This document shows positions 6,001 to 25,861 of a stretch of 25,861 nt of DNA, piece after piece. The notes beneath the pieces are model-generated. The model was not told where the DNA came from, did not search any database, and was given only the letters and a program-made list of their open reading frames with translations. The position numbers and the translations under genes were made by a program. The stretch's first letter is position 1. Each line of letters opens with the position of its first letter. Source of the DNA: a virus. Location: the IMG/VR virus record IMGVR_UViG_3300023234_000140; one strand, written 5' to 3'.

Positions 6001-6386
6001 TTTACAAAGAAACAGGATTACAAAGTATATTAATTTGTAATTCAAGTGCAACTGGATATACTGGAGTAATGACCTGTGGTACTGGAACTTATTCTGGAAA
6101 CTTTTATGCGGTTGGATATAGAACAGCATCTCCAGAAAAAATTCTTATTACTTTGTGGCATTCCCTAAGTGATGCTGTTGATGGTGACTTTGGATTATTC
6201 ATAGGGTTTATTTTAGCTATGGTAGTAGGATTAATTGGTATATTCTCCCCAGTAGCATCAATAACATTATTAATAATTGGTCTAATTCCAGTGGTTATAT
6301 TTGGTGCAATAAACATAGCTATTTTCATGGGGATTGTAACTTTAGCAGGGATAATAATTCATTATCTCGGGAAGGCAAAGTCCTAA
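3057..6386 (+). CDS. Large membrane-anchored adhesin / receptor-binding virion protein: signal peptide, LamG (concanavalin A-like) domain, Ig-like repeats, C-terminal TM helices (1109 aa)
   Basis: LamG motifs LIAYWTFDE...FTIAGWVY...WIHWALKRDGSNFTLFWNG...ALTDAEIVNLFN; Ig-like segment YLWGVQACDSDGDCG...VDSTAPVITIISP; many N-x-S/T sequons; hydrophobic C-terminus. Confidence 0.85.
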   Translation: MKKLLIILLMGMFLVSFVGAAVLPMKSFDDKIGDYGKVTIHNWNIIGKIFDLKLAELELKENTDTCGSSCSAETEIVMYQRGSLIDDVKFMTLQEDESWIKQDIKSYQFYIKTGEEVYDVDDFEYQCKEQEVYEPKNDTTYTEKYDCKNVKVGTHKETEKLWEEYTLGSEVETGTYEIKLEGEKKSSRTVDWQITSQGKLIDEWAVWGKNPNLIAYWTFDETTGDVIDVVNGLYNWTEVGTVPESSGVLDGSRGHTSVSNYFKQVKGTTDIMSSIENQNFTIAGWVYTKTARDHGPVWSNSRGSATQGFRVFNYYAGAEDRHIVLEINSGGTSKKDGVEGTDYIPSVENRWIHWALKRDGSNFTLFWNGSIIRNVTRTGVLNLSTAGTNAQFNLGYQLAIDQKYNENTYDDTGFWGKALTDAEIVNLFNSGEGKYYSEIQGNLIVLNSPENDYGPSINTIEFNATATQTVATISNMSLWTNQSGIFQQENVTTGLSGNTNETIWSHTIIGNGNYLWGVQACDSDGDCGFASENRTVNVDSTAPVITIISPTTPISYGYVNQNVTLNWSIVEAGTFDSVWYNHNSSNITVYGASNVSNFSIESYINNNITVYANDSVNNIGSTFYEWNYTLFENSKTYPTTTFETDTEYFIINLTYDDSIYLSMNGNLNHNGTNSVLTDTGSGSNVIFNSTIVIPVVTASGTMDFFWNVSLNDGATTTYITSPTYSHSVTALQSINITNTACPAGYFETANYTFKDANTLTDQNMNIDYNFEYGTGDSSSKELYGNFVDTDIFRICINETQGDYKLGYGEINYDSTGYVERRFYMFEEFPLSNETGNAYTLYNLPTASATSFIFEVKDAQLTPYNNKYLNLLRWYPELDEYKIVEAAYTDGDGKTVMKVKVEDVDYRVGVYERDGTLIQLAAAVRMACLVNPCTYTLQVDSAETDFFSVYDVESTLVYDSDNSRFVFTWNDASQATDSMRLDVYKETGLQSILICNSSATGYTGVMTCGTGTYSGNFYAVGYRTASPEKILITLWHSLSDAVDGDFGLFIGFILAMVVGLIGIFSPVASITLLIIGLIPVVIFGAINIAIFMGIVTLAGIIIHYLGKAKS

Positions 6387-6811
6387 TGGCATCAACATTT
6401 GAGGGATGGACAGAGGGAATGGTGTTTTCTATAATTTTCATTTTAATATTTGGGGTAATAGTTATTGGAGGAATGAATAATTTACATGATGGAGAGGATT
6501 TTGAAGTTGAAGGATTAGACACTTCATCAATGGAAGCAAGTTTTAATCAATATCAAGAAAATCAAGAAGATAGCATTACAGGTGGTGAAGCATCATTTTT
6601 GTCAGCAGTAGGTCTAACTTTGGGAACTTCTTGGAATATTATAACCTCGTTGTTCTCCATGTTAATGGTCTTTGTTGCAGGTGGAGGATGGATTGAAACA
6701 GTTGTAAAATATATGATGTTACCTGACTACTTGTCCTGGGCCCTTAGAGGACTATGGATCACTGCACTAGGGTTTATAATCTTAAGAATATTGTTCAAGG
6801 TGAAAACATGA
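6386..6811 (+). CDS. Membrane protein, probably a virion or assembly component (141 aa)
   Basis: Three hydrophobic segments; stop/start overlap with the adhesin gene. Confidence 0.75.
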   Translation: MASTFEGWTEGMVFSIIFILIFGVIVIGGMNNLHDGEDFEVEGLDTSSMEASFNQYQENQEDSITGGEASFLSAVGLTLGTSWNIITSLFSMLMVFVAGGGWIETVVKYMMLPDYLSWALRGLWITALGFIILRILFKVKT

Positions 6812-7122
6812 GTAACTTTACAAATATAACCAACCCATTTGAAGGAGCTAATAATTTCTCTTCATTACTTAATGTAGTGAATACTAATACAGGTGGGTGG
6901 GGTTATGTAGGATTAATGATTATGATGCAAGTAATTCTGTTCATGGCCTTTATGCCACAGTTTGGTTTTGTTGCAGCATTGATGACTTCCGCATTCCTTA
7001 TGTTAATTTCTGGTATGTTCTTAACATATTTGGGTCTAATGGGTTGGAAATTTCTTATGTTGTTTCTAGGACAAATATTGTTCTCCATAATATATATTAC
7101 TTGGCAAGAAAGAAATGTTTAG
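6808..7122 (+). CDS. Multi-TM membrane protein (probable start at ATG 6808, MSNFTNITNPF...)
   Basis: Internal ATG of track ORF 6754-7122; it overlaps the upstream TGA and is preceded by GGTG. Three TM segments; sequons NFT/NIT/NFS. Confidence 0.7.
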   Translation: MSNFTNITNPFEGANNFSSLLNVVNTNTGGWGYVGLMIMMQVILFMAFMPQFGFVAALMTSAFLMLISGMFLTYLGLMGWKFLMLFLGQILFSIIYITWQERNV

Positions 7123-7166
7123 GTAACTAAGAAGTAACTTAAAAGTGACTTAACGATATATAAAGG
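7123..7166 (+). promoter_or_regulatory. Capsid-operon promoter: three GT(A/G)ACT repeats at 11-bp spacing followed by TATA box GATATATAAAGG
   Basis: GTAACT at 7123 and 7134, GTGACT at 7145. GATATATAAAGG at 7155-7166 is identical to 19156-19167. Confidence 0.6.
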
Positions 7167-7219
7167 ACTTATTCTTCCAAATACTTATGCTGAATATTAA
7201 TGAAAGGAGGTCAAAATAA

Positions 7220-7465
7220 ATGTTTGATAATTTAAGTGCTTTAGGATATGGTCTAGTAACTTTCGCTATTATTATTGGTGTAGGAACTGTTGTTCTTCAA
7301 AAATTCGGTGACTCTGTTGGAGGAACTGCTAACACAACTGTTTCTTACTTGAACACACAACTTGGAACCTCAGGGTTAGCAGGTTGGACACCCGCAATAA
7401 TTGCATTAAGTGTAGGTATGTTATTCTTGGGTGTATTCCTAACTAGAAGTGGAAGAAAAGTTTAA
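7220..7465 (+). CDS. Putative major capsid protein 1, spindle-shaped-virus-type helical hairpin (81 aa)
   Basis: Two hydrophobic helices joined by a loop with an NTT sequon; basic C-terminal tail; strong AGGAGG RBS; paralog immediately downstream. Confidence 0.7.
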   Translation: MFDNLSALGYGLVTFAIIIGVGTVVLQKFGDSVGGTANTTVSYLNTQLGTSGLAGWTPAIIALSVGMLFLGVFLTRSGRKV

Positions 7466-7484
7466 ACATTCTTGATTAAATAGA

Positions 7485-7817
7485 ATGTTTGACAACTTGT
7501 CTGCTTTAGGATATGGTTTAGTAACCTTTGCAATTATAATTGGTGTAGGAGTAGTAATACTTTCTAAGTTTGGTAGCAGTGTGGATGGGTGTAGTGACAT
7601 CGCAACTGGTGGAACTTGGTCTTATAATGTCTCTTCAGGTCTTTGTGGTAACACAACAGACACATCATCTGCTTCACAAGCAACCCAGAATGTTTTCTAT
7701 TTAGAAGGACAGATGGGAACTGCTGGATTAGCAGGATGGACACCAGCAATAATTGCTCTTTCAGTTGGTATGCTATTCCTAGGTGTATTTCTAACTAGAG
7801 GCGGAAGGAAGGTATAA
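7485..7817 (+). CDS. Putative capsid protein 2, paralog of 7220-7465 with a 29-aa loop insertion (110 aa)
   Basis: Near-identical N- and C-terminal helices; the insertion carries two Cys and NVS/NTT sequons. Confidence 0.7.
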   Translation: MFDNLSALGYGLVTFAIIIGVGVVILSKFGSSVDGCSDIATGGTWSYNVSSGLCGNTTDTSSASQATQNVFYLEGQMGTAGLAGWTPAIIALSVGMLFLGVFLTRGGRKV

Positions 7818-7832
7818 ACCTCCGTTAAATAG

Positions 7833-7861
7833 TTTATTTTTTTTTTATTTTTTCCTTTTTT
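7833..7861 (+). terminator. Oligo-T tract after the capsid genes, archaeal-type terminator (its 3' end may also serve as a TATA element for 7888)
   Basis: Long T-rich run immediately after the stop at 7817. Confidence 0.5.
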
Positions 7862-7887
7862 ATACCACAAACATAGGGTGAACCATA

Positions 7888-8106
7888 ATGAAAGCAAAAA
7901 AAGTAGTAACAAAATTTGGAAGGAACATAAAAGATGTTTTTATAGTTGCAAAACAATCAGTTAAACATGAAACAAAGGGATGTAGTAATGAAGTTTGTAA
8001 AAAATTAGGTGTTAAAAAGACCAAGTATAAGAAAAAAACTCGGAAACAACTTCATAAAGAATATAATTCTAAGGCCACATTAAATCTAGGTGGTTTATAT
8101 GGCTAG
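7888..8106 (+). CDS. Lys-rich small basic protein (72 aa)
   Basis: ORF track; very high K/R content. Confidence 0.65.
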   Translation: MKAKKVVTKFGRNIKDVFIVAKQSVKHETKGCSNEVCKKLGVKKTKYKKKTRKQLHKEYNSKATLNLGGLYG

Positions 8107-8161
8107 AAAAAAGAAAAAACAAAGATCGGTGTATAGGCAAGGGAGGAAAATAAAATGGTAA
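8099..8161 (+). CDS. Protamine-like micropeptide (20 aa, MARKKKKQRSVYRQGRKIKW)
   Basis: GGTGG RBS upstream; overlaps both neighbouring ORFs. Confidence 0.4.
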   Translation: MARKKKKQRSVYRQGRKIKW

Positions 8162-8325
8162 CAAAAAAAATTATTCTGAAAAAGTTTGGTTTAGATATGT
8201 CAAGAAATGTTAAAGGTGGTATACAATTTACCAGAGATTATACAAGAGCAAAAACAAAAGCAAATGCTATAAAACTATTCTCCAAAAAATACAAAACTAA
8301 AGTCAAATCAAGGGAGGTATATTAA
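8155..8325 (+). CDS. Small basic protein (56 aa, MVTKKIILKKFGLDMSRNVKGG...)
   Basis: GGGAGG RBS; manual translation. Confidence 0.65.
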   Translation: MVTKKIILKKFGLDMSRNVKGGIQFTRDYTRAKTKANAIKLFSKKYKTKVKSREVY

Positions 8326-8326
8326 A

Positions 8327-8461
8327 ATGAGTGTAAAAACATATTTAATTGGTCAAATAGGGATGAACCAGATTAAAATGGGAAAAGAACCTTCTGATCC
8401 TGTGAAGTTAAGGAGATTAACTATTTCTAATCTAAAAAAAATATTAAGGAGGTTTAAATAA
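8327..8461 (+). CDS. Small basic protein (44 aa, MSVKTYLIGQIGMNQIKMGKEPSDPVKLRRL...)
   Basis: GGGAGGT RBS; TAATG overlap with the next ORF. Confidence 0.6.
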   Translation: MSVKTYLIGQIGMNQIKMGKEPSDPVKLRRLTISNLKKILRRFK

Positions 8462-8616
8462 TGGCATATAAAATAATAGTAGGAACAAAAAAAGGAAATT
8501 CTTTGATGATCCCAAAAAGTTTTAAAACAAGGTATCAGGCAAAGATTGCAATTAGTAATGCAAAAAAATCTTTAAAATATAAAAATTTTACAAAATATTT
8601 AATTGTAAAAATATAA
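8461..8616 (+). CDS. Small basic protein (51 aa, MAYKIIVGTKKGNSLMIPKSFKTRYQAKIA...)
   Basis: AAGGAGGT RBS within a 19-bp motif that is repeated at 8614. Confidence 0.65.
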   Translation: MAYKIIVGTKKGNSLMIPKSFKTRYQAKIAISNAKKSLKYKNFTKYLIVKI

Positions 8617-8629
8617 GGAGGTTTAAATA

Positions 8630-10167: not shown

Positions 10168-10701
10168 CTATTTAAATATATGTATTTTTGGGGGTTGCTT
10201 AGGGAGGTGCTTTCTTTTCTTCTGGACCTTATTCTTAGAACCTTTTTTCCTACCAAGGTATTTTCCTTCCTCTAACTTAGCTCTAGCAACTCCTACCCTA
10301 ATCTTCTGAACTAAATTTTCAACATAGAAGCAGTTCATAGACAATTTGATTCTAAACATGAACCTTCCATTAGGACTATTCAAATCTACATTTTCTGATA
10401 TAGATTTTAGAGTGATCCCATTGTCAATTATAAAACTCTCTAATTCAACACCATCTTTAAAGTTCCTGGTCAATCTGTCAGTGTCCTGGACAATTAAAAC
10501 ATAGTCAGGGTGATCTCTCAAGCAATTAAGCATATTCTGGTAACCTTTCCTTTCAGATTCCTTGCCAGTTTGCTCATCTGTGTAGTACCTTACCACATCA
10601 TAATTCTCTCTTTGTGCCCACTTCTTACAGTAATCCACTTGTTGTTTGACATTTTGTTTCTCTTTATTAGTGGAAATCCTCGCATAAATTATTGCTTTCA
10701 T
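10168..10701 (-). CDS. Small serine recombinase (resolvase/invertase family), catalytic domain only (177 aa)
   Basis: YARIST catalytic motif, DEQTGKESERKGYQNML, DRLTRN motif, and helix E ending in GRKKG. Confidence 0.92.
   Translation of the reverse strand: MKAIIYARISTNKEKQNVKQQVDYCKKWAQRENYDVVRYYTDEQTGKESERKGYQNMLNCLRDHPDYVLIVQDTDRLTRNFKDGVELESFIIDNGITLKSISENVDLNSPNGRFMFRIKLSMNCFYVENLVQKIRVGVARAKLEEGKYLGRKKGSKNKVQKKRKHLPKQPPKIHIFK
10170..10181 (-). promoter_or_regulatory. TATA-type promoter ATATATTTAAAT for the AbrB-like operon
   Basis: Starts 35 nt upstream of ATG 10146; the same 12-mer occurs on + at 18901-18912. Confidence 0.55.
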
Positions 10702-12872: not shown

Positions 12873-13140
12873 TGCAATCCTAAAGAAAAAGAATGCGGTG
12901 GGAATTGAAAAACCTATTGCTGCAAGAATAGTTTGTAAATATCAATTCGCAGTTGCAATGTTTTCTGACAAAGCACTTGCAAAGAAGTTATCAAAAGCAG
13001 AAGCAAGATCAGGAAAAGATGTTAGGTATGATGAAGGATTAAATGTAATGGTTGAAAGGTTTCCAGAGAAATCAGCGAGGGAAGTTAGCGAAATAATTAC
13101 AAAACAAATGGAAGACAATGGGGGAACAATAAGTAAATGA
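12841..13140 (+). CDS. Hypothetical protein, possibly DNA-binding (99 aa)
   Basis: ORF track; GGAGGG RBS upstream. Confidence 0.65.
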   Translation: MSDNQDWVTINAILKKKNAVGIEKPIAARIVCKYQFAVAMFSDKALAKKLSKAEARSGKDVRYDEGLNVMVERFPEKSAREVSEIITKQMEDNGGTISK

Positions 13141-19435: not shown

Positions 19436-19566
19436 TTAATTTAAAGAAGTGTAAGAAGTGTGGGGAGCTTTTTGATATTGATACTTCACAGGATTGGTGT
19501 CCTAAATGTAGAAATAAAAAAATTAAATTGATTGGAGAAAAAGATGGGAACTTGTTGGAATTGTAA
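19432..19566 (+). CDS. Zinc-ribbon microprotein (44 aa, MINLKKCKKCGELFDIDTSQDWCPKCRNKK...)
   Basis: CxxC-x12-CxxC; GGTGAAGGAG RBS; ATGA overlap. Confidence 0.7.
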   Translation: MINLKKCKKCGELFDIDTSQDWCPKCRNKKIKLIGEKDGNLLEL

Positions 19567-20428
19567 TACTCAAATTACCTTAGCAGAAGAACAAACCAAA
19601 TGTGATTCTTGTGGTTGTATTATTTATTATAAATGTAATTCTTGTAAAGAAGAATTTAAAGTTGAAGATAGAAAAACAAAAAAGAAATTAAAAGAATGTA
19701 AATTATGTGGTTATTTTTTCTGCCCAAGTTGTGGAGTGTGTTCATGGGGTTGTTCAAGATATACATGGGAAAAAGAAATTTTACAAAGATTAGCTCCAGA
19801 AATTACACAAGGTAATTGTATAAATATTGTTGAAAAAGTTAGGGATATTGTTAATTACTTTGAAGAAGAAAAGAGTGGGAAGGAAAGAAGAGTTTGTACT
19901 GAAAGAGGAGTATCAATTAGTTATGCAAAGAATAGAATTAAAACTTTATTGGCAAAGGTTGAGGGTTTTAGAGTTAAAAATGAAAATGATAGAAACGCTT
20001 TTATTAAAAGAATGAATGAAATAATTCAAAAAAATATTGGAGATGAATTAAAAATAAGTGATGTTAAAGAAGATGGAAGTTATGGACAAGAATATAGGGA
20101 TGCTTTTAATCTATTAGTTTGTATGGGAAAATTAAAAATTATTAAAAAATCATTTATAAAAAATAATGAAACTATTGAATATGATTCTTATATTAGAATT
20201 GAAGGAGTTCCATGTAAATTACTTTCAACTGATAATTTAATAATTAATGAATGCACAAATATCAAGCATGAAAATAATAAAAGATTTCCATTAGAAACAA
20301 CTCATTGTCCAACTTGCCCAGTACATACAAAAGGAAAAAATAAGGGGCAACAATGGGAATTAAAAAAGAGGTTAAATAATGAGGATGTCTGTCAATTATA
20401 CAGAGGTTCTTTTATTAAAAAGAAATAA
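19544..20428 (+). CDS. Multi-zinc-finger protein upstream of the primase-helicase (track ORF 19532; ATG start at 19544)
   Basis: CWNC, CDSC, CNSC, CKLC and CPSC motifs at the N-terminus, further Cys at the C-terminus; GGAG RBS before 19544. Confidence 0.8.
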   Translation: MGTCWNCNTQITLAEEQTKCDSCGCIIYYKCNSCKEEFKVEDRKTKKKLKECKLCGYFFCPSCGVCSWGCSRYTWEKEILQRLAPEITQGNCINIVEKVRDIVNYFEEEKSGKERRVCTERGVSISYAKNRIKTLLAKVEGFRVKNENDRNAFIKRMNEIIQKNIGDELKISDVKEDGSYGQEYRDAFNLLVCMGKLKIIKKSFIKNNETIEYDSYIRIEGVPCKLLSTDNLIINECTNIKHENNKRFPLETTHCPTCPVHTKGKNKGQQWELKKRLNNEDVCQLYRGSFIKKK

Positions 20429-22791
20429 TGAAAGATTTATTAAAAGAAGAATGGGAAAAACATAAAGCTAGTAAAAACAAACCTAAAATAATAAAAGAAA
20501 TAAATATTCCTGAGCAAATACGAGGATTTAACTTTGTATTGGATGGTGGTAATGGAAAACAACCAATAGAAAAAGCATGGCAAAAAAAGGTGCATAAAAT
20601 AGATTGTCCTAAATTTCAAGAACATATTTCCCAAGGAAAAAATTATGGGGTTCAAAGTAATGAGTCGTTTATTAATATTAATGGAGAAAATAGATTTTTA
20701 ATTGTTATTGATTTTGATACAAAAGAATTTCAAGATAAAGTTCTTAAAGAATTTCCAGAAACATTTACAACTTCAAGTGGGAGTGACAAAAATTGCTTTC
20801 ACTTATGGTTAGCATCTGATGAAAATAAGGCGTTTAAAATTAAAGATGAAAAATTAGAAACTTTATCAGATGTTATTGGGGCAGGTAATCAAATAATTGG
20901 TCCTGGAAGTACACATCAATCTGGAAGTATTTATTCAGTTGTTAAAGATGTTCCAATAGTTTTTATGCCTTATGCAGAAATAAAAGCTATATTAAAACCC
21001 CATGATAAATCTCCTAAGAAAATAAAAAAACCTCAAAAACAATATTCCCCAAAAGGTATTGGAACAAATATAGCAGAAGATATAATTAATTCTATTTCAA
21101 TGGATGAAGTTCTTAATGAAATAGGGATAGATACTTCTAAAAACCCAACAAATTGTTTTGCCCATGGTAGTAAGGGTGAAAAATGTTTTAGTTATAATGA
21201 TCAAACTGCACATTGTTTTCACTGTGATGGTTCTTGGAATAAGTTTAGTTTAATTAGGGAAGCAAAAAATTTAACAGATAAAGATACTTTTAATTGGTTT
21301 GCAGAAAAGACAGGGAAAACAGATGAATTAGAAAAATCAAGAAAAGATTATGGAAAAGAAAATGCCCAGAAAAATAAATTAAAGGAGGCTGCAAGGGTTT
21401 TTACTCTTGGTGGACAGATAGAATTATTTTATGATCAACAACCATTCTTTTATGATAAAAGCAAAATGTTTTTTATATGGAATAAAGAATTATTTAAATG
21501 GGAACTATCAGATGAAATAGATATTTTAAATGTTATTTTTGCACTTACTGGCAAAGATATTATTACTTCTAAAAGTAGGGCAGAAATAATTAATTCATTA
21601 AAACAAAAAGGAAGATTGAATCATCCAAAACCAATAAAAAAATCTTGGATACAATTTAAAAATAAAATATATGATGTAAAAACAGGGGAGGAATTTGAAG
21701 CAACACCAGAATATTTTGTTACAAATCCAATACCTTGGAAAGTTGGTGATAGTGAAGATACTCCAATTATAGATAAATATCTTAATGAATGGGTAGGAGA
21801 AACTTATTCACAATTATTATATGAATTTCTTGCATATAATACTTGCATAGATAAATTTATGCAGAGAATATTTGCTTTTTGTGGAGGAGGATCTAATGGG
21901 AAGGGTACATTCATTAAATTAAACTATAAATTTTTAGGAGAAGATAATTGTGTTTCTTCTGAAATAAAAAATTTGAGTGATGATAAATTTGAAGCGGCCG
22001 TTCTTTATAGAAAATTACTTTGTGTAATGGGAGAAGTTTCACATTCAGATTTAAAAAATACTAATCAAATTAAAAAGATTGCTGGAGAAGATAAACTTAG
22101 TTTTCAATTCAAAGGTAAAACTCCTTTCACAGATGATAATACTGCAACTTGTGTTTGTCTTACTAATTCTCTTCCAATTACTCCAGATAAATCTTTAGGA
22201 TTTTATAGAAAATGGGGGATAATAGATTTTCCAAATCAATTCAGTGGAATTAAACATGATGTAGTTGGATCTATTCCTGATGTTGAATTTGAAAATCTTG
22301 CAAGAAAATGTATTAATATTTTAAAAGATTTATATAAAACAAGAAAATTTACTAATGAAGGTACATTTGAGGAAAGAATGGAAAGATATGAAGAAAGATC
22401 AAATCCTGTTATGAAATACTTAGAAGAATATTATGATGAAGAGGTTGGGGGTTATATTTCAATAAGACAATTTACTAATGATTGTAATGAATATCTTAAA
22501 AAAAATCATTTAAGAATAATGTCTGCGGTTTATGTTGGAAAAATATTAAGAGAAGAGGGTTTTTCTGTATCACAAAGGAAAATAGATGATATTACTTCTA
22601 CTGTTATTCTAAACCTTAGCAAAAAAGTCCGTAGAACCACTGAAACCACCCAAATCTCAACTAGAAATTCCCCTGTAAAATCTAGTGAGAATTTGGATGG
22701 TTTCGATGGTTTGAGTGGTTTTACCTCTGAAGAGATAAAAAATGCAGGATATACTAAAGAAGAATTAAAAAAGGCAATGAAAGATAAATGA
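20428..22791 (+). CDS. Bifunctional primase-polymerase / Zn finger / D5-like SF3 helicase replication protein (787 aa)
   Basis: Prim-pol motifs NYGV, LIVIDFD, T-x-SG...FHLW, IIGPGSTH; C-x2-H...C-x2-C zinc finger; D5_N-like FKNKIYDVKTG; Walker A GGGSNGKGT; Walker B CVMGE. Confidence 0.92.
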   Translation: MKDLLKEEWEKHKASKNKPKIIKEINIPEQIRGFNFVLDGGNGKQPIEKAWQKKVHKIDCPKFQEHISQGKNYGVQSNESFININGENRFLIVIDFDTKEFQDKVLKEFPETFTTSSGSDKNCFHLWLASDENKAFKIKDEKLETLSDVIGAGNQIIGPGSTHQSGSIYSVVKDVPIVFMPYAEIKAILKPHDKSPKKIKKPQKQYSPKGIGTNIAEDIINSISMDEVLNEIGIDTSKNPTNCFAHGSKGEKCFSYNDQTAHCFHCDGSWNKFSLIREAKNLTDKDTFNWFAEKTGKTDELEKSRKDYGKENAQKNKLKEAARVFTLGGQIELFYDQQPFFYDKSKMFFIWNKELFKWELSDEIDILNVIFALTGKDIITSKSRAEIINSLKQKGRLNHPKPIKKSWIQFKNKIYDVKTGEEFEATPEYFVTNPIPWKVGDSEDTPIIDKYLNEWVGETYSQLLYEFLAYNTCIDKFMQRIFAFCGGGSNGKGTFIKLNYKFLGEDNCVSSEIKNLSDDKFEAAVLYRKLLCVMGEVSHSDLKNTNQIKKIAGEDKLSFQFKGKTPFTDDNTATCVCLTNSLPITPDKSLGFYRKWGIIDFPNQFSGIKHDVVGSIPDVEFENLARKCINILKDLYKTRKFTNEGTFEERMERYEERSNPVMKYLEEYYDEEVGGYISIRQFTNDCNEYLKKNHLRIMSAVYVGKILREEGFSVSQRKIDDITSTVILNLSKKVRRTTETTQISTRNSPVKSSENLDGFDGLSGFTSEEIKNAGYTKEELKKAMKDK
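22635..22722. repeat. Imperfect long inverted repeat with 9-bp-spaced repeats inside the helicase gene 3' end (candidate origin)
   Basis: Left arm 22635-22665 with AACCAC at 22635 and 22644; right arm 22681-22722 with TGGTTT at 22698, 22707 and 22716. Confidence 0.65.
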
Positions 22792-23669: not shown

Positions 23670-23987
23670 ATGGTATTTGAAGAAATTAATCCACAAGAGG
23701 TTAAATTTGAAAAAGAAGAAGATTCTATTCAAGGAATTTTACTTCAAAAGCAAACAGATATAGGACCTAACAAGGCAAATCTGTATGGCATTGAAACACC
23801 TGAAGGTGTAAAAAATGTTTGGGGAGCTACTATCCTTGATCAAAGAATGGACTTTGTTAAGGTTGGAGATAAGGTAAAAATTACCTTTAAAGGCCTAGGT
23901 GAAAAGAAACCTGGTCAAAATGCACCAAAGATTTTCAAAGTTGAAGTTGATAAAGAAGATCAAATTGAAACTCAAAAGATAGAATAA
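23670..23987 (+). CDS. Putative OB-fold single-stranded DNA-binding protein (105 aa)
   Basis: SIQGILL...G-x-N-x-x-x-LY-x-IET-x-EG...VWGATILD...VKVGDKVKITFKG pattern; acidic tail; located in the replication module. Confidence 0.65.
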   Translation: MVFEEINPQEVKFEKEEDSIQGILLQKQTDIGPNKANLYGIETPEGVKNVWGATILDQRMDFVKVGDKVKITFKGLGEKKPGQNAPKIFKVEVDKEDQIETQKIE

Positions 23988-24080
23988 ATTTTTATTAAAA
24001 CCCCAATTTGGGGTTCATAGTCATCATGTGTGCTGGAATGACACATCAGCCTCTTATCAAGGCACACATTCATAATCAAA

Positions 24081-24421: not shown

Positions 24422-24534
24422 ACTTAAATTTATTTTTACTATATTTGGGTTTTGGACTTGCATTAGCATTGATTGTAATAATGATGGATTTTATAATCTA
24501 TTATTTAAATGAAAGATATGGAGAGAAAAAATGA
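24418..24534 (+). CDS. Single-TM microprotein (38 aa)
   Basis: MNLNLFLLYLGFGLALALIVIMMDFII...; ATGA overlaps. Confidence 0.55.
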   Translation: MNLNLFLLYLGFGLALALIVIMMDFIIYYLNERYGEKK

Positions 24535-24689
24535 GGGATATATATGATTGGTGTATAAGTTGTAAAAGAGAAGGAATGGTTTGTTTAGATTGTTTGAAGA
24601 TGTATATTTTTAGAAAAGAAGTTACAACAACAAAGCCAACAAGTTATTTAAGTAAATTGGAGAGATCAGAAAATGACTATCAAATCTAA
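24531..24689 (+). CDS. Four-Cys zinc-finger microprotein (52 aa), paralog of 25671
   Basis: WCISCK-x5-CLDCL...KP motif. Confidence 0.65.
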   Translation: MRDIYDWCISCKREGMVCLDCLKMYIFRKEVTTTKPTSYLSKLERSENDYQI

Positions 24690-24727
24690 AACGACATCAA
24701 AGAATACAAAAACGAATGGGAGTAAAA

Positions 24728-24940
24728 ATGAACAATTATAATCAGAATGATGGCTCAGGTGCTTTTTCTAGGATGGCTAATGAGGTTACGGTTCTTGGAA
24801 CTCTCCATTCTGATACCCAAAGAGTCCGTAAAAAGGTTGTGTATGCAATCTGCCCAACACCCTATATCGTTAGAAATACCGATATAGTTCGGGGTGTTAT
24901 TGGTTGGGAAGCTCTGTGGGGTTTAGAGGTGAAAGAATGA
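24728..24940 (+). CDS. Hypothetical cassette ORF, GC-richer than its surroundings (track start 24716)
   Basis: GGGAG RBS; ends ...EVKE* in a junction motif. Confidence 0.45.
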   Translation: MNNYNQNDGSGAFSRMANEVTVLGTLHSDTQRVRKKVVYAICPTPYIVRNTDIVRGVIGWEALWGLEVKE

Positions 24941-25155
24941 TAGGAAAATTGGAAATTACTTCAAATGTAAAAGAAATAGATTTTATGGAAAGTGTTTTGA
25001 ACATGGCAAGTTCTGGATATGAAGGAAGTTGTTCTACTTCATTAATGTTTTATGCTTTATTACATTCATGGCACATTGATAAATTTGTTTATTACAATTA
25101 TTTAATTGAAGAAACAAAAAAGACATTCAACACCACAAGTGAGGTGAAAGAATGA
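24937..25155 (+). CDS. Cassette ORF (72 aa, MIGKLEITSNVKE...FNTTSEVKE)
   Basis: GAGGTG RBS and ATGA overlap. Confidence 0.6.
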   Translation: MIGKLEITSNVKEIDFMESVLNMASSGYEGSCSTSLMFYALLHSWHIDKFVYYNYLIEETKKTFNTTSEVKE

Positions 25156-25244
25156 GTGAAAATATGTTAGAAGAGATTAAGTCAGCTCTTACAATTATTG
25201 CAGGTTTAATGTTAGGGTTTGTATTGGGAGCGACCTATGGATAA
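25152..25244 (+). CDS. Single-TM micropeptide, copy 1 (30 aa, MSENMLEEIKSALTIIAGLMLGFVLGATYG)
   Basis: GAGGTG RBS; hydrophobic helix with GxxxG motifs. Confidence 0.6.
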   Translation: MSENMLEEIKSALTIIAGLMLGFVLGATYG

Positions 25245-25271
25245 TTCATTCAACACCACAGAGGTAAAAGA

Positions 25272-25430
25272 ATGAGTGAAACAATAATTTTAAATAAAGC
25301 TATTGAATGTTCAAGTTGTGTTGATTGGGATGTTTTAGTAACAGGAATAATAATTTTTTTAGTTGTTTATATTTTATTCGGCTTAATTGAATTAGCATAT
25401 ACTGTTTTACATAGGAGGGAAAATGATTAA
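25272..25430 (+). CDS. Single-TM microprotein with CxxC (52 aa, MSETIILNKAIECSSCVDWDVLVTGIIIF...)
   Basis: GAGGT RBS; manual translation. Confidence 0.6.
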   Translation: MSETIILNKAIECSSCVDWDVLVTGIIIFLVVYILFGLIELAYTVLHRREND

Positions 25431-25545
25431 AAAGATATTCGCAATCAACCTAGCACTTTTACTTTTAATACTTTGGAATGCAATTGATATTCGTAGAATT
25501 AGGAAATCATTAAACACCACAAGTGTGAATGGGAGTAAAGAATGA
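25423..25545 (+). CDS. Single-TM microprotein (40 aa, MIKKIFAINLALLLLILWNAIDIRRIRKSLNTTSVNGSKE)
   Basis: AGGAGG RBS; ends in a junction motif. Confidence 0.55.
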   Translation: MIKKIFAINLALLLLILWNAIDIRRIRKSLNTTSVNGSKE

Positions 25546-25634
25546 GTGAAAATATGTTAGAAGAGATTAAGTCAGCTCTTACAATTATTGCAGGTTTAAT
25601 GTTAGGGTTTGTATTGGGAGCGACCTATGGATAA
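25542..25634 (+). CDS. Single-TM micropeptide, copy 2 (identical to 25152-25244)
   Basis: Lies inside the exact repeat; GGGAG RBS. Confidence 0.6.
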   Translation: MSENMLEEIKSALTIIAGLMLGFVLGATYG

Positions 25635-25670
25635 TTCATTCAACACCACATTAACAAACAGGAGTAAAGA

Positions 25671-25861
25671 ATGAATCATAAAGAATTTAAATCAATCTGG
25701 GAATGGTGTTATGAATGTAAAGATAATTATGAAAGTTGTGATGGATGTTTAAGAGTAACATTATATAGATTACAAACTGATGTAGTAAAACCTGCATGGT
25801 TCAAAAGAGAATTAACTGAGATTGACAAATCAAGAATTAAATATAAAGAGAGAACGCAAAT
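25671..25861 (+). CDS. Four-Cys zinc-finger protein, truncated by the window edge (MNHKEFKSIWEWCYECKDNYESCDGCLR...)
   Basis: AGGAG RBS; same Cys spacing as 24531-24689. Confidence 0.6.
   Translation, partial: MNHKEFKSIWEWCYECKDNYESCDGCLRVTLYRLQTDVVKPAWFKRELTEIDKSRIKYKERTQ

Follow-up and report, generated by a model that had tools for sequence, protein, structure and literature searches.

We analyzed a 25,861-nt stretch of viral DNA (IMG/VR record IMGVR_UViG_3300023234_000140; hereafter, the window), the last part of which (24673-25861) is a head-to-tail run of tiny open reading frames (ORFs) on the + strand, and compared this micro-gene array with those of related metagenome contigs. Several borders between the micro-genes carry the same short joint, and the relatives differ in the genes that lie between identical joints. 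The best explanation overall, and one that we consider likely, is that the joint is a portable part of a translationally coupled micro-gene operon, that genes are shuffled through the homology of the joints, and that the module itself is kept for a role in the mRNA. The narrower proposition that the joints are recombination seams, i.e. boundaries of mosaic segments, is in our judgment very probable from the contig comparisons.

The joint between the micro-genes

The joint begins with a 14-nt box, CATTMAACACCACA, of which the window holds exactly four matches (25124, 25247, 25508 and 25637), all on the + strand, against an expectation of 0.04; none of 100 shuffled sequences reached four. A second string, AAAGAATGA, occurs eight times in the window (1.34 expected), and five of these eight copies lie within 24932-25674. 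At each of its four copies the box is followed by a spacer containing the ribosome-binding site (RBS) and then by an overlapping stop and start codon. The spacers (9, 6, 15 and 15 nt) are all multiples of three, which places every box in the reading frame of the TGA in the ATGA overlap that follows it. We regard the whole module as a portable intercistronic unit of about 30-40 nt, made up of the 14-nt box, a Shine-Dalgarno (SD) spacer and the ATGA stop/start overlap, with the SD sequence inside the 3' end of the upstream gene. Copies of the module stand in direct orientation at several gene borders, and the box lies either within the final codons of the upstream gene or shortly behind its stop codon.

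The box forms the true C-terminus of gene A (24937-25155; 72 aa), whose last codons consist of the box and a short tail. Joint 1 (A/B; 25124-25155), with box, 9-nt SD spacer and stop/start overlap, leads into the first copy of gene B (25152-25244), an optional ORF that is also found in relatives and encodes a 30-aa peptide with a single transmembrane (TM) segment. Behind B, the box starts 3 nt past the TAA and is untranslated; joint 2 (B/C; 25247-25275) continues with a 6-nt spacer and the stop/start half into gene C (25272-25430; 52 aa, with a CxxC motif and a TM segment). Gene D (25423-25545; 40 aa, with a TM segment) also has the box as its true C-terminus, here in a variant with A at position 5, which opens joint 3 (D/B; 25508-25545; 15-nt spacer). 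The second copy of B (25542-25634) follows, and then joint 4 (B/E; 25637-25674; box and 15-nt spacer) and gene E (25671-25861), which encodes a zinc-finger protein of 73-75 aa in relatives and is cut by the window end. Both B copies lie in an exact 114-nt direct repeat (25147-25260 and 25537-25650) that holds the 30-aa ORF and a box. No family match was found for the cargo proteins of the array.

Two partial joints lie upstream of these four. The c1/A joint (24926-24940) has the SD sequence and the overlapping stop/start without the box, and no hairpin is predicted for it. A relic joint (24714-24731), consisting of an SD-like GGGAG and the start of the 70-aa gene c1 (24728-24940; an ORF also present in relatives), is related to the spacer of the joint at 25508, and its positions 24714-24726 are identical to 25527-25539. 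An earlier note on this DNA had described a bipartite junction motif between consecutive tiny ORFs, a variable RBS spacer of 6-15 nt, these two partial copies and one unit that is present twice. All of this proved accurate, and the scan of the whole window that it had called for located the box nowhere else. The role in host interaction that the earlier note gave to the micro-genes is putative.

Gene content of the array in related contigs

The related set comprises about 45 metagenome contigs, most of which represent one nearly clonal population (98-99.8% identity); exact-protein look-ups in JGI and ENA assemblies turned up this element on dozens of contigs. The layout of the window, A-B-C-D-B-E with box spacings of 123, 261 and 129 nt, is not a misassembly, because the same four-box arrangement occurs in four independent JGI/ENA assemblies (contigs L140, L146, L147 and L149).

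Among the non-redundant contigs that span the end of gene A, 11 have gene B between A and C, and 17 lack it and run directly from A to C. The A/C joint exists in two forms. Most contigs (L133, L135-138, L141, L145) retain the A/B spacer, which places the crossover in the 15-nt stop/start half common to the starts of B and C, and L132 retains the B/C spacer, which places the crossover in the box. Since each form is one deletion away from A-B-C, at least two independent events in different parts of the same module are indicated. Furthermore, a G/C single-nucleotide polymorphism (SNP) at 25111, 13 nt 5' of the box, is combined with the presence or absence of B in all four possible ways (8, 3, 4 and 10 contigs, as read from contig displays). 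The distance from the SNP to the joint (<40 nt) is below both the read length and the k of 141, so assembly chimeras cannot explain the four combinations, which require recurrent gain or loss of B, or exchange within <40 nt.

Repeats and variants of this kind might also arise as artefacts, from collapsed or chimeric assemblies of strains, and many contigs do end in the array region. However, different samples, assembled independently at JGI and ENA, gave identical layouts, and the joints and the linked SNP are too close together to have been brought together in assembly; we consider an artefact extremely improbable. The shuffling of the array also explains why metagenome contigs of these elements break there.

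Other rearrangements of the array were found as well. L172 reads A-B-E; judged from this layout, the two B copies of the 114-nt repeat recombined with each other and C-D-B was deleted. In L132 and L134, identity with the window ends inside the D box at 25517; D stops four nucleotides later and a different gene comes next. Gene E was lost in L160, in frame, via a 9-nt repeat at the starts of two genes, and some events in the region use just 3-9 nt of homology. At the other end of the array, the 52-aa zinc-finger gene c11 (24531-24689), present in most relatives, is the last constant gene before the variable stretch. It is followed by a 22-aa remnant ORF (24673-24741), which comparison with relatives identifies as a deletion scar: the first 13 codons of a 174-aa gene are fused in frame to the last 8 codons of a 76-aa gene, and L125 and six further contigs retain both genes in intact form (including L138, L141, L143, L145 and L152). 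As a separate observation, 16-aa mini-ORFs in L148 (1300-1365) and L154 (2480-2548) end in the same relic joint as the 22-aa scar, and indicate independent deletions upstream of the 70-aa gene.

The box was also found with unrelated gene partners. A metagenome scan with the bipartite pattern returned 16 contigs, one of which (L162, unrelated context) is a chance match. Gene B is preceded by four unrelated box-ended genes, namely A, D, a 50-aa gene (L166) and a 100-aa gene (L173), and it is found, identical in sequence, in otherwise unrelated contigs. In L167 and L171, two unrelated genes, for a 59-aa and a 52-aa protein, respectively, end in the box and are followed by one common downstream gene, which is not B. 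Pairwise displays of L167 with L171, and of L173 with the window, showed identity that starts exactly at the box and is 100% downstream of it; L134 and L171 are 100% identical over ~470 nt and then diverge within the tail of their common 52/53-aa gene. Over all contigs, the box is flanked by at least six different partners on its left and four on its right. The gain, loss and duplication of micro-genes at the joints, which the earlier note had proposed, is thus borne out by relatives that carry different cassette content between identical joints. Of the circumstances that it had named as fatal to the proposal, gene order is not the same among relatives but varies, a single local tandem duplication is ruled out because boxes end at least six unrelated genes, and misassembly is countered by the agreement of independent assemblies.

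A simpler explanation of these borders is that the box is a translation signal only, and that the borders came to lie at gene ends by random illegitimate recombination and selection (the Hendrix model), with no increase in rate at the box. The regional events that rest on 3-9 nt of homology fit this explanation, as does the fact that the surviving joints are all in frame with an ATGA overlap, which selection for coupling would give. However, two different joints, each within the repeated module, resulted from the same B indel; the four-gamete pattern extends over <40 nt; homology of otherwise unrelated contigs starts exactly at the box in several independent pairings; and the box-less joints of the same operon were not seen as swap points in this data set. 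We therefore regard this explanation as unlikely.

Several points nevertheless weigh against the joints as portable seams. The pattern used in the metagenome scan demanded both halves of the joint, so that only contigs with this architecture were retrievable. Conservation of the box is uninformative in near-clonal contigs (98-99.8% identity), and in the comparison with the diverged L134 copy (89% identity) the 14/14 identity of the box has a chance probability of ~0.2. Finally, the direction of each event, gain or loss, comes from parsimony only.

A predicted hairpin and the mode of exchange

The box is complementary to the downstream RBS, a feature that the earlier note had missed. In the predicted RNA fold of the joint, CAUUC of the box pairs with GAAUG of the start region and CACC of the box with the SD sequence GGUG, with energies of -8.6 (A/B), -10.2 (B/C) and -7.4 (B/E) kcal/mol and z scores of -3.4, -3.0 and -2.4, respectively. 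Pairing of the box with the SD sequence and start is predicted in 10 of the 12 distinct joint variants over all contigs, and no such fold is predicted for the four box-less joints of the same operon; overall, the predicted hairpins span -7 to -11 kcal/mol. In L134, where the gene behind the joint has a different start region, the variant box is predicted to pair with that region over 9 bp.

We also considered that the box might be conserved for the peptide that it encodes, a C-terminal K-[ST]-[FL]-N-T-T tail that the small proteins would share and that could serve, for instance, in sorting or, as a sequon, in glycosylation. In seven contexts a real ORF ends in the box, always in one reading frame, and NTT and NGS are N-X-S/T sequons. 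However, the box after gene B is kept even though it lies behind a stop codon, and all copies use the same G+C-rich codons in a genome with a G+C content of 31%. The tail is present on soluble and membrane proteins alike, and the variant box conserves nucleotides rather than peptide, retaining the CACC core while NTT is replaced by NHP. A peptide function is accordingly highly improbable, and the pattern of conservation together with the predicted folds suggests that the box serves translational coupling first.

For such coupling, the hairpin would hide the ribosome site of the next gene until the ribosome that finishes the upstream gene melts it, and the module would be kept for this role in the mRNA. 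The untranslated box after B may have been retained because a ribosome terminating 3 nt upstream of it would still unwind the hairpin. Some features of the fold count against this role. At the D/B and L173 joints (z -0.2 and -1.3) the box folds on an internal decoy, GAAUGG, instead of the true start. Stems are short and rich in A and U, and the few box variants (position 0, and position 5 in the D box) weaken pairs, none of them being compensatory. In addition, since both arms of the hairpin are invariant across all joints, it has no covariation support. Taking these points together, we judge the chances that the box hairpin occludes the RBS to be about even.

The repeated joint recalls the integron, which consists of the tyrosine integrase IntI, an attI site and cassettes that carry attC sites of 57-141 nt and are expressed from the Pc promoter. 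The likeness lies in promoterless single-gene cassettes that all point the same way, end in a repeat on their 3' side and may be present, absent or duplicated. By this analogy the array could be a dedicated, enzyme-catalyzed cassette system, in which the box or its hairpin is the site of a serine recombinase and cassettes are excised and inserted as circles. The position of the box at the 3' end of each cassette, as with attC, and its uniformly direct orientation speak for such a system, as does the small inverted repeat TCATTC...GAATGA at the joint; moreover, the element encodes a small serine recombinase (10168-10701, - strand; 177 aa, a serine resolvase), to which some relatives add a second one of 164 aa.

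However, crossovers fall in at least three different places (the box, the stop/start half and the inside of B), and nearby deletions use unrelated repeats of 9 nt or shorter. No fixed crossover point was found, given the two different A/C joints and the exchange inside B. The arms of the inverted repeat are 18-27 nt apart, depending on the joint, and the 14-nt box itself is not palindromic; the joints thus show no fixed geometry and no dyad-symmetric serine-recombinase site of the res/hix type with a central crossover. Pfam scans that covered 30 ORFs of the window, every large one among them, found no IntI-type tyrosine recombinase and returned only the serine resolvase, the gene of which lies 14 kb from the array and points in the opposite direction. 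No attC-like imperfect palindrome of 57-141 nt is present at the joints, only a hairpin of 5-6 bp plus 4 bp, and predicted translational coupling takes the place of Pc. A dedicated enzyme system is therefore very unlikely, and neither the label "integron-like" nor the role at the junctions that the earlier note had offered to the serine recombinase is supported. The more specific proposal that the box hairpin is the true site of a minimal cassette exchange in DPANN-associated viruses, with one of the small serine recombinases moving micro-genes such as B as circles, has in our view only a slim chance of being correct; if true, it would represent an analogue of the integron, built from a serine recombinase and a translational joint, that moves micro-genes among unrelated virus genomes.

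Short-homology exchange is favored over site-specific recombination because crossovers are spread over the module and B, the spacing of the arms varies, the box is non-palindromic and no tyrosine integrase was found. The relatives differ by deletions, duplications and swaps of partners that have their breakpoints inside the module, in the box or in the stop/start half, and these would have arisen from homology-driven events such as unequal exchange, annealing or template switching between repeats of 9-31 nt, or over 114-143 nt of homology where gene B is repeated. No catalysis at a fixed site would be involved, and short-homology recombination between the repeated joints is the most likely process. 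Only those recombinants that keep frame and coupling would survive, leaving unrelated proteins with the same C-terminal tail. This constant in-frame outcome is best explained by selection, because genes chained by ATGA need an upstream ribosome that ends on the next start. The mechanism that we invoke for the selection is coupling by termination-reinitiation at the stop/start overlap, as described for ATGA-overlapping gene pairs in archaea and bacteria (Huber et al. 2019, PMC6728339). The array shares with these pairs the ATGA overlap and the SD sequence inside the 3' end of the upstream gene (PMC6728339). That mechanism is a general one of gene expression; the array adds to it a recurring upstream box that complements the RBS and is used as a mosaic border.

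Relation to known systems

The PeSL cassettes of T4-type phages are repeated promoter/stem-loop/SD units between orphan genes of hyperplastic regions (Arbiol et al. 2010, PMC2839356; Comeau et al. 2014, PMC4122927). [quoted passage not shown] In both cases the repeats also delimit the indels and replacements by which close relatives differ, which upholds the analogy with PeSL cassettes drawn in the earlier note, and PeSL exchange is likewise thought to be homologous, with the expression signal traveling with the gene. However, the PeSL is an intergenic element of ~100 bp with a strong early sigma-70 promoter, for which BRE/TATA would be the archaeal counterpart, and a terminator stem-loop, whereas the joint described here measures 30-40 nt, is partly coding and acts, if at all, on translation. 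No promoter was detected at the joints (a scan gave 13 sites against 16.6 expected, and the joint sequences hold no TATA-like run), and because the genes overlap (ATGA) the joints have no intergenic space. Neither a terminator nor an attenuator stem-loop was found at the joints, where the predicted hairpin is short, lacks a T-run and encloses the RBS. Furthermore, excised mini-circles, which carry one chimeric repeat, have been demonstrated for PeSLs, whereas shuffling is read here from contig comparison. The joint thus lacks the defining promoter and terminator of PeSLs, as well as all defining features of integrons, and is a smaller, translation-level module with a PeSL-like logic.

Conserved boundary or linker sequences reportedly also separate the modules of lambdoid phages, as in the modular theory of Susskind and Botstein. 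Both there and here, the proposal is that crossovers occur preferentially in short homologies between genes, but the linkers are sporadic in lambdoid phages, whereas a single box recurs within one operon here.

Among archaeal viruses, the haloarchaeal tailed virus HGTV-1 is described, in the account relayed by PMC3950731, as having a PeSL-like TATA-box/inverted-repeat motif before most of its left-arm ORFs (Sencilo et al. 2013). According to that account, this repeated motif at ORF borders was proposed to serve both expression and genome shuffling, so that a PeSL-type idea is not new for archaeal viruses, contrary to the earlier note, which was aware of none. As relayed there, HGTV-1 is a tailed virus of 144 kb and its motif acts as a signal for transcription (PMC3950731), whereas the present joint is translational, belongs to a ~27-kb non-tailed element and comes with comparative evidence of swaps.

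A joint of 30-40 nt that, as predicted, very probably couples translation would thus double as the seam along which genes are excised, duplicated and handed on to genomes that are otherwise unrelated. The PeSL idea, so far one of transcription signals in large phages of bacteria, is extended here to a signal for translation and to a DPANN-linked element of ~27 kb. The contigs provide a clean natural example, at the level of a population, of the renewal of accessory genes in very small viruses whose archaeal hosts are uncultured. The evidence for shuffling is unusually direct, and the viruses of the host group are almost uncharted. For annotation, it follows that proteins with the common C-terminal tail are here non-homologues, and that mini-ORFs of 22 aa and of 12-15 aa are scars.

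The element, its host and further observations

Two contigs, L153 and L172, bridge the window ends (25671-25861 to 1-300), running from gene E through two to four small genes and a DNA methylase gene to the genes of the window start. Because of this continuity, the window is, on the evidence of gene order, a circularly permuted and nearly complete genome of ~27 kb, the contig having broken within the variable region. We regard the element as a roughly 27-kb circular, non-tailed, virus- or plasmid-like element. It encodes a prim-pol/D5-type helicase in a single 787-aa ORF (20428-22791); beyond this protein and the serine recombinase, nearly all of the window ORFs are without recognizable identity.

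No DNA match to the window was found among 50,697 phage records. Searches of IMG/VR yielded only single chance matches to the box alone, none to the bipartite pattern and one distant relative of the helicase. Other relatives of the helicase part are found on contigs binned with metagenome-assembled genomes (MAGs) of Pacearchaeota, Woesearchaeota and Nanoarchaeota, with 42-67% identity; in addition, one 34% match covers nearly the whole protein and one match is weaker (25%). Because these relatives sit on DPANN MAG contigs, the host is probably a DPANN archaeon, the helicase providing an indirect link. To our knowledge, viruses of DPANN archaea are almost unknown. The distant relatives (L001, L174-L181) have no box within two mismatches and no obvious joint repeat of their own.

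Variation extends beyond the micro-gene array, because ORF calls for the helicase and the gene upstream of it differ among relatives: the 787-aa helicase of the window is called as 515 + 272 aa in a 27.4-kb relative (L133) and as 608 aa in L132, and a 1086-aa gene in L124 takes the place of the 725-aa gene upstream of the helicase. An optional multi-gene module follows the methylase gene and a 55-aa gene in L136, L138, L140, L156 and L157, and is absent from L133 and L153. It opens with the second serine recombinase (164 aa), which is 25% identical to the 177-aa enzyme of the window, and it may be a small mobile insert in the element. We rejected the idea that this arrangement is an inversion of the resolvase region of the window, since the two recombinases are just 25% identical and their neighbors are unrelated.

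The 298-aa protein encoded at 19532-20428 has an N-terminal zinc ribbon. A weak PHROG match (E 1e-4) to a Sak4-like annealase, which would have supplied an enzyme for recombination, received no backing from Pfam and PDB searches, and this annotation was not used. In L178, a Pacearchaeota MAG contig with a related helicase, a 10-nt unit is repeated six times in tandem at 12901-12980 in an iteron-like manner, and a 23-nt repeat occurs four times within 6102-8624 at apparent gene starts on the - strand.

Finally, the 105-aa protein encoded at 23670-23987 of the window and the 137-aa protein of L171 (6875-7288) have only their last seven residues detectably in common (IETQK-I/V-E), and a hairpin-forming spacer follows both genes; the common end may be another shared gene-end module or the trace of diverged homologues. 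In the window, a G+C-rich hairpin at 23999-24017, directly 3' of the 105-aa gene and ahead of the micro-gene operon, may mark a transcript boundary.

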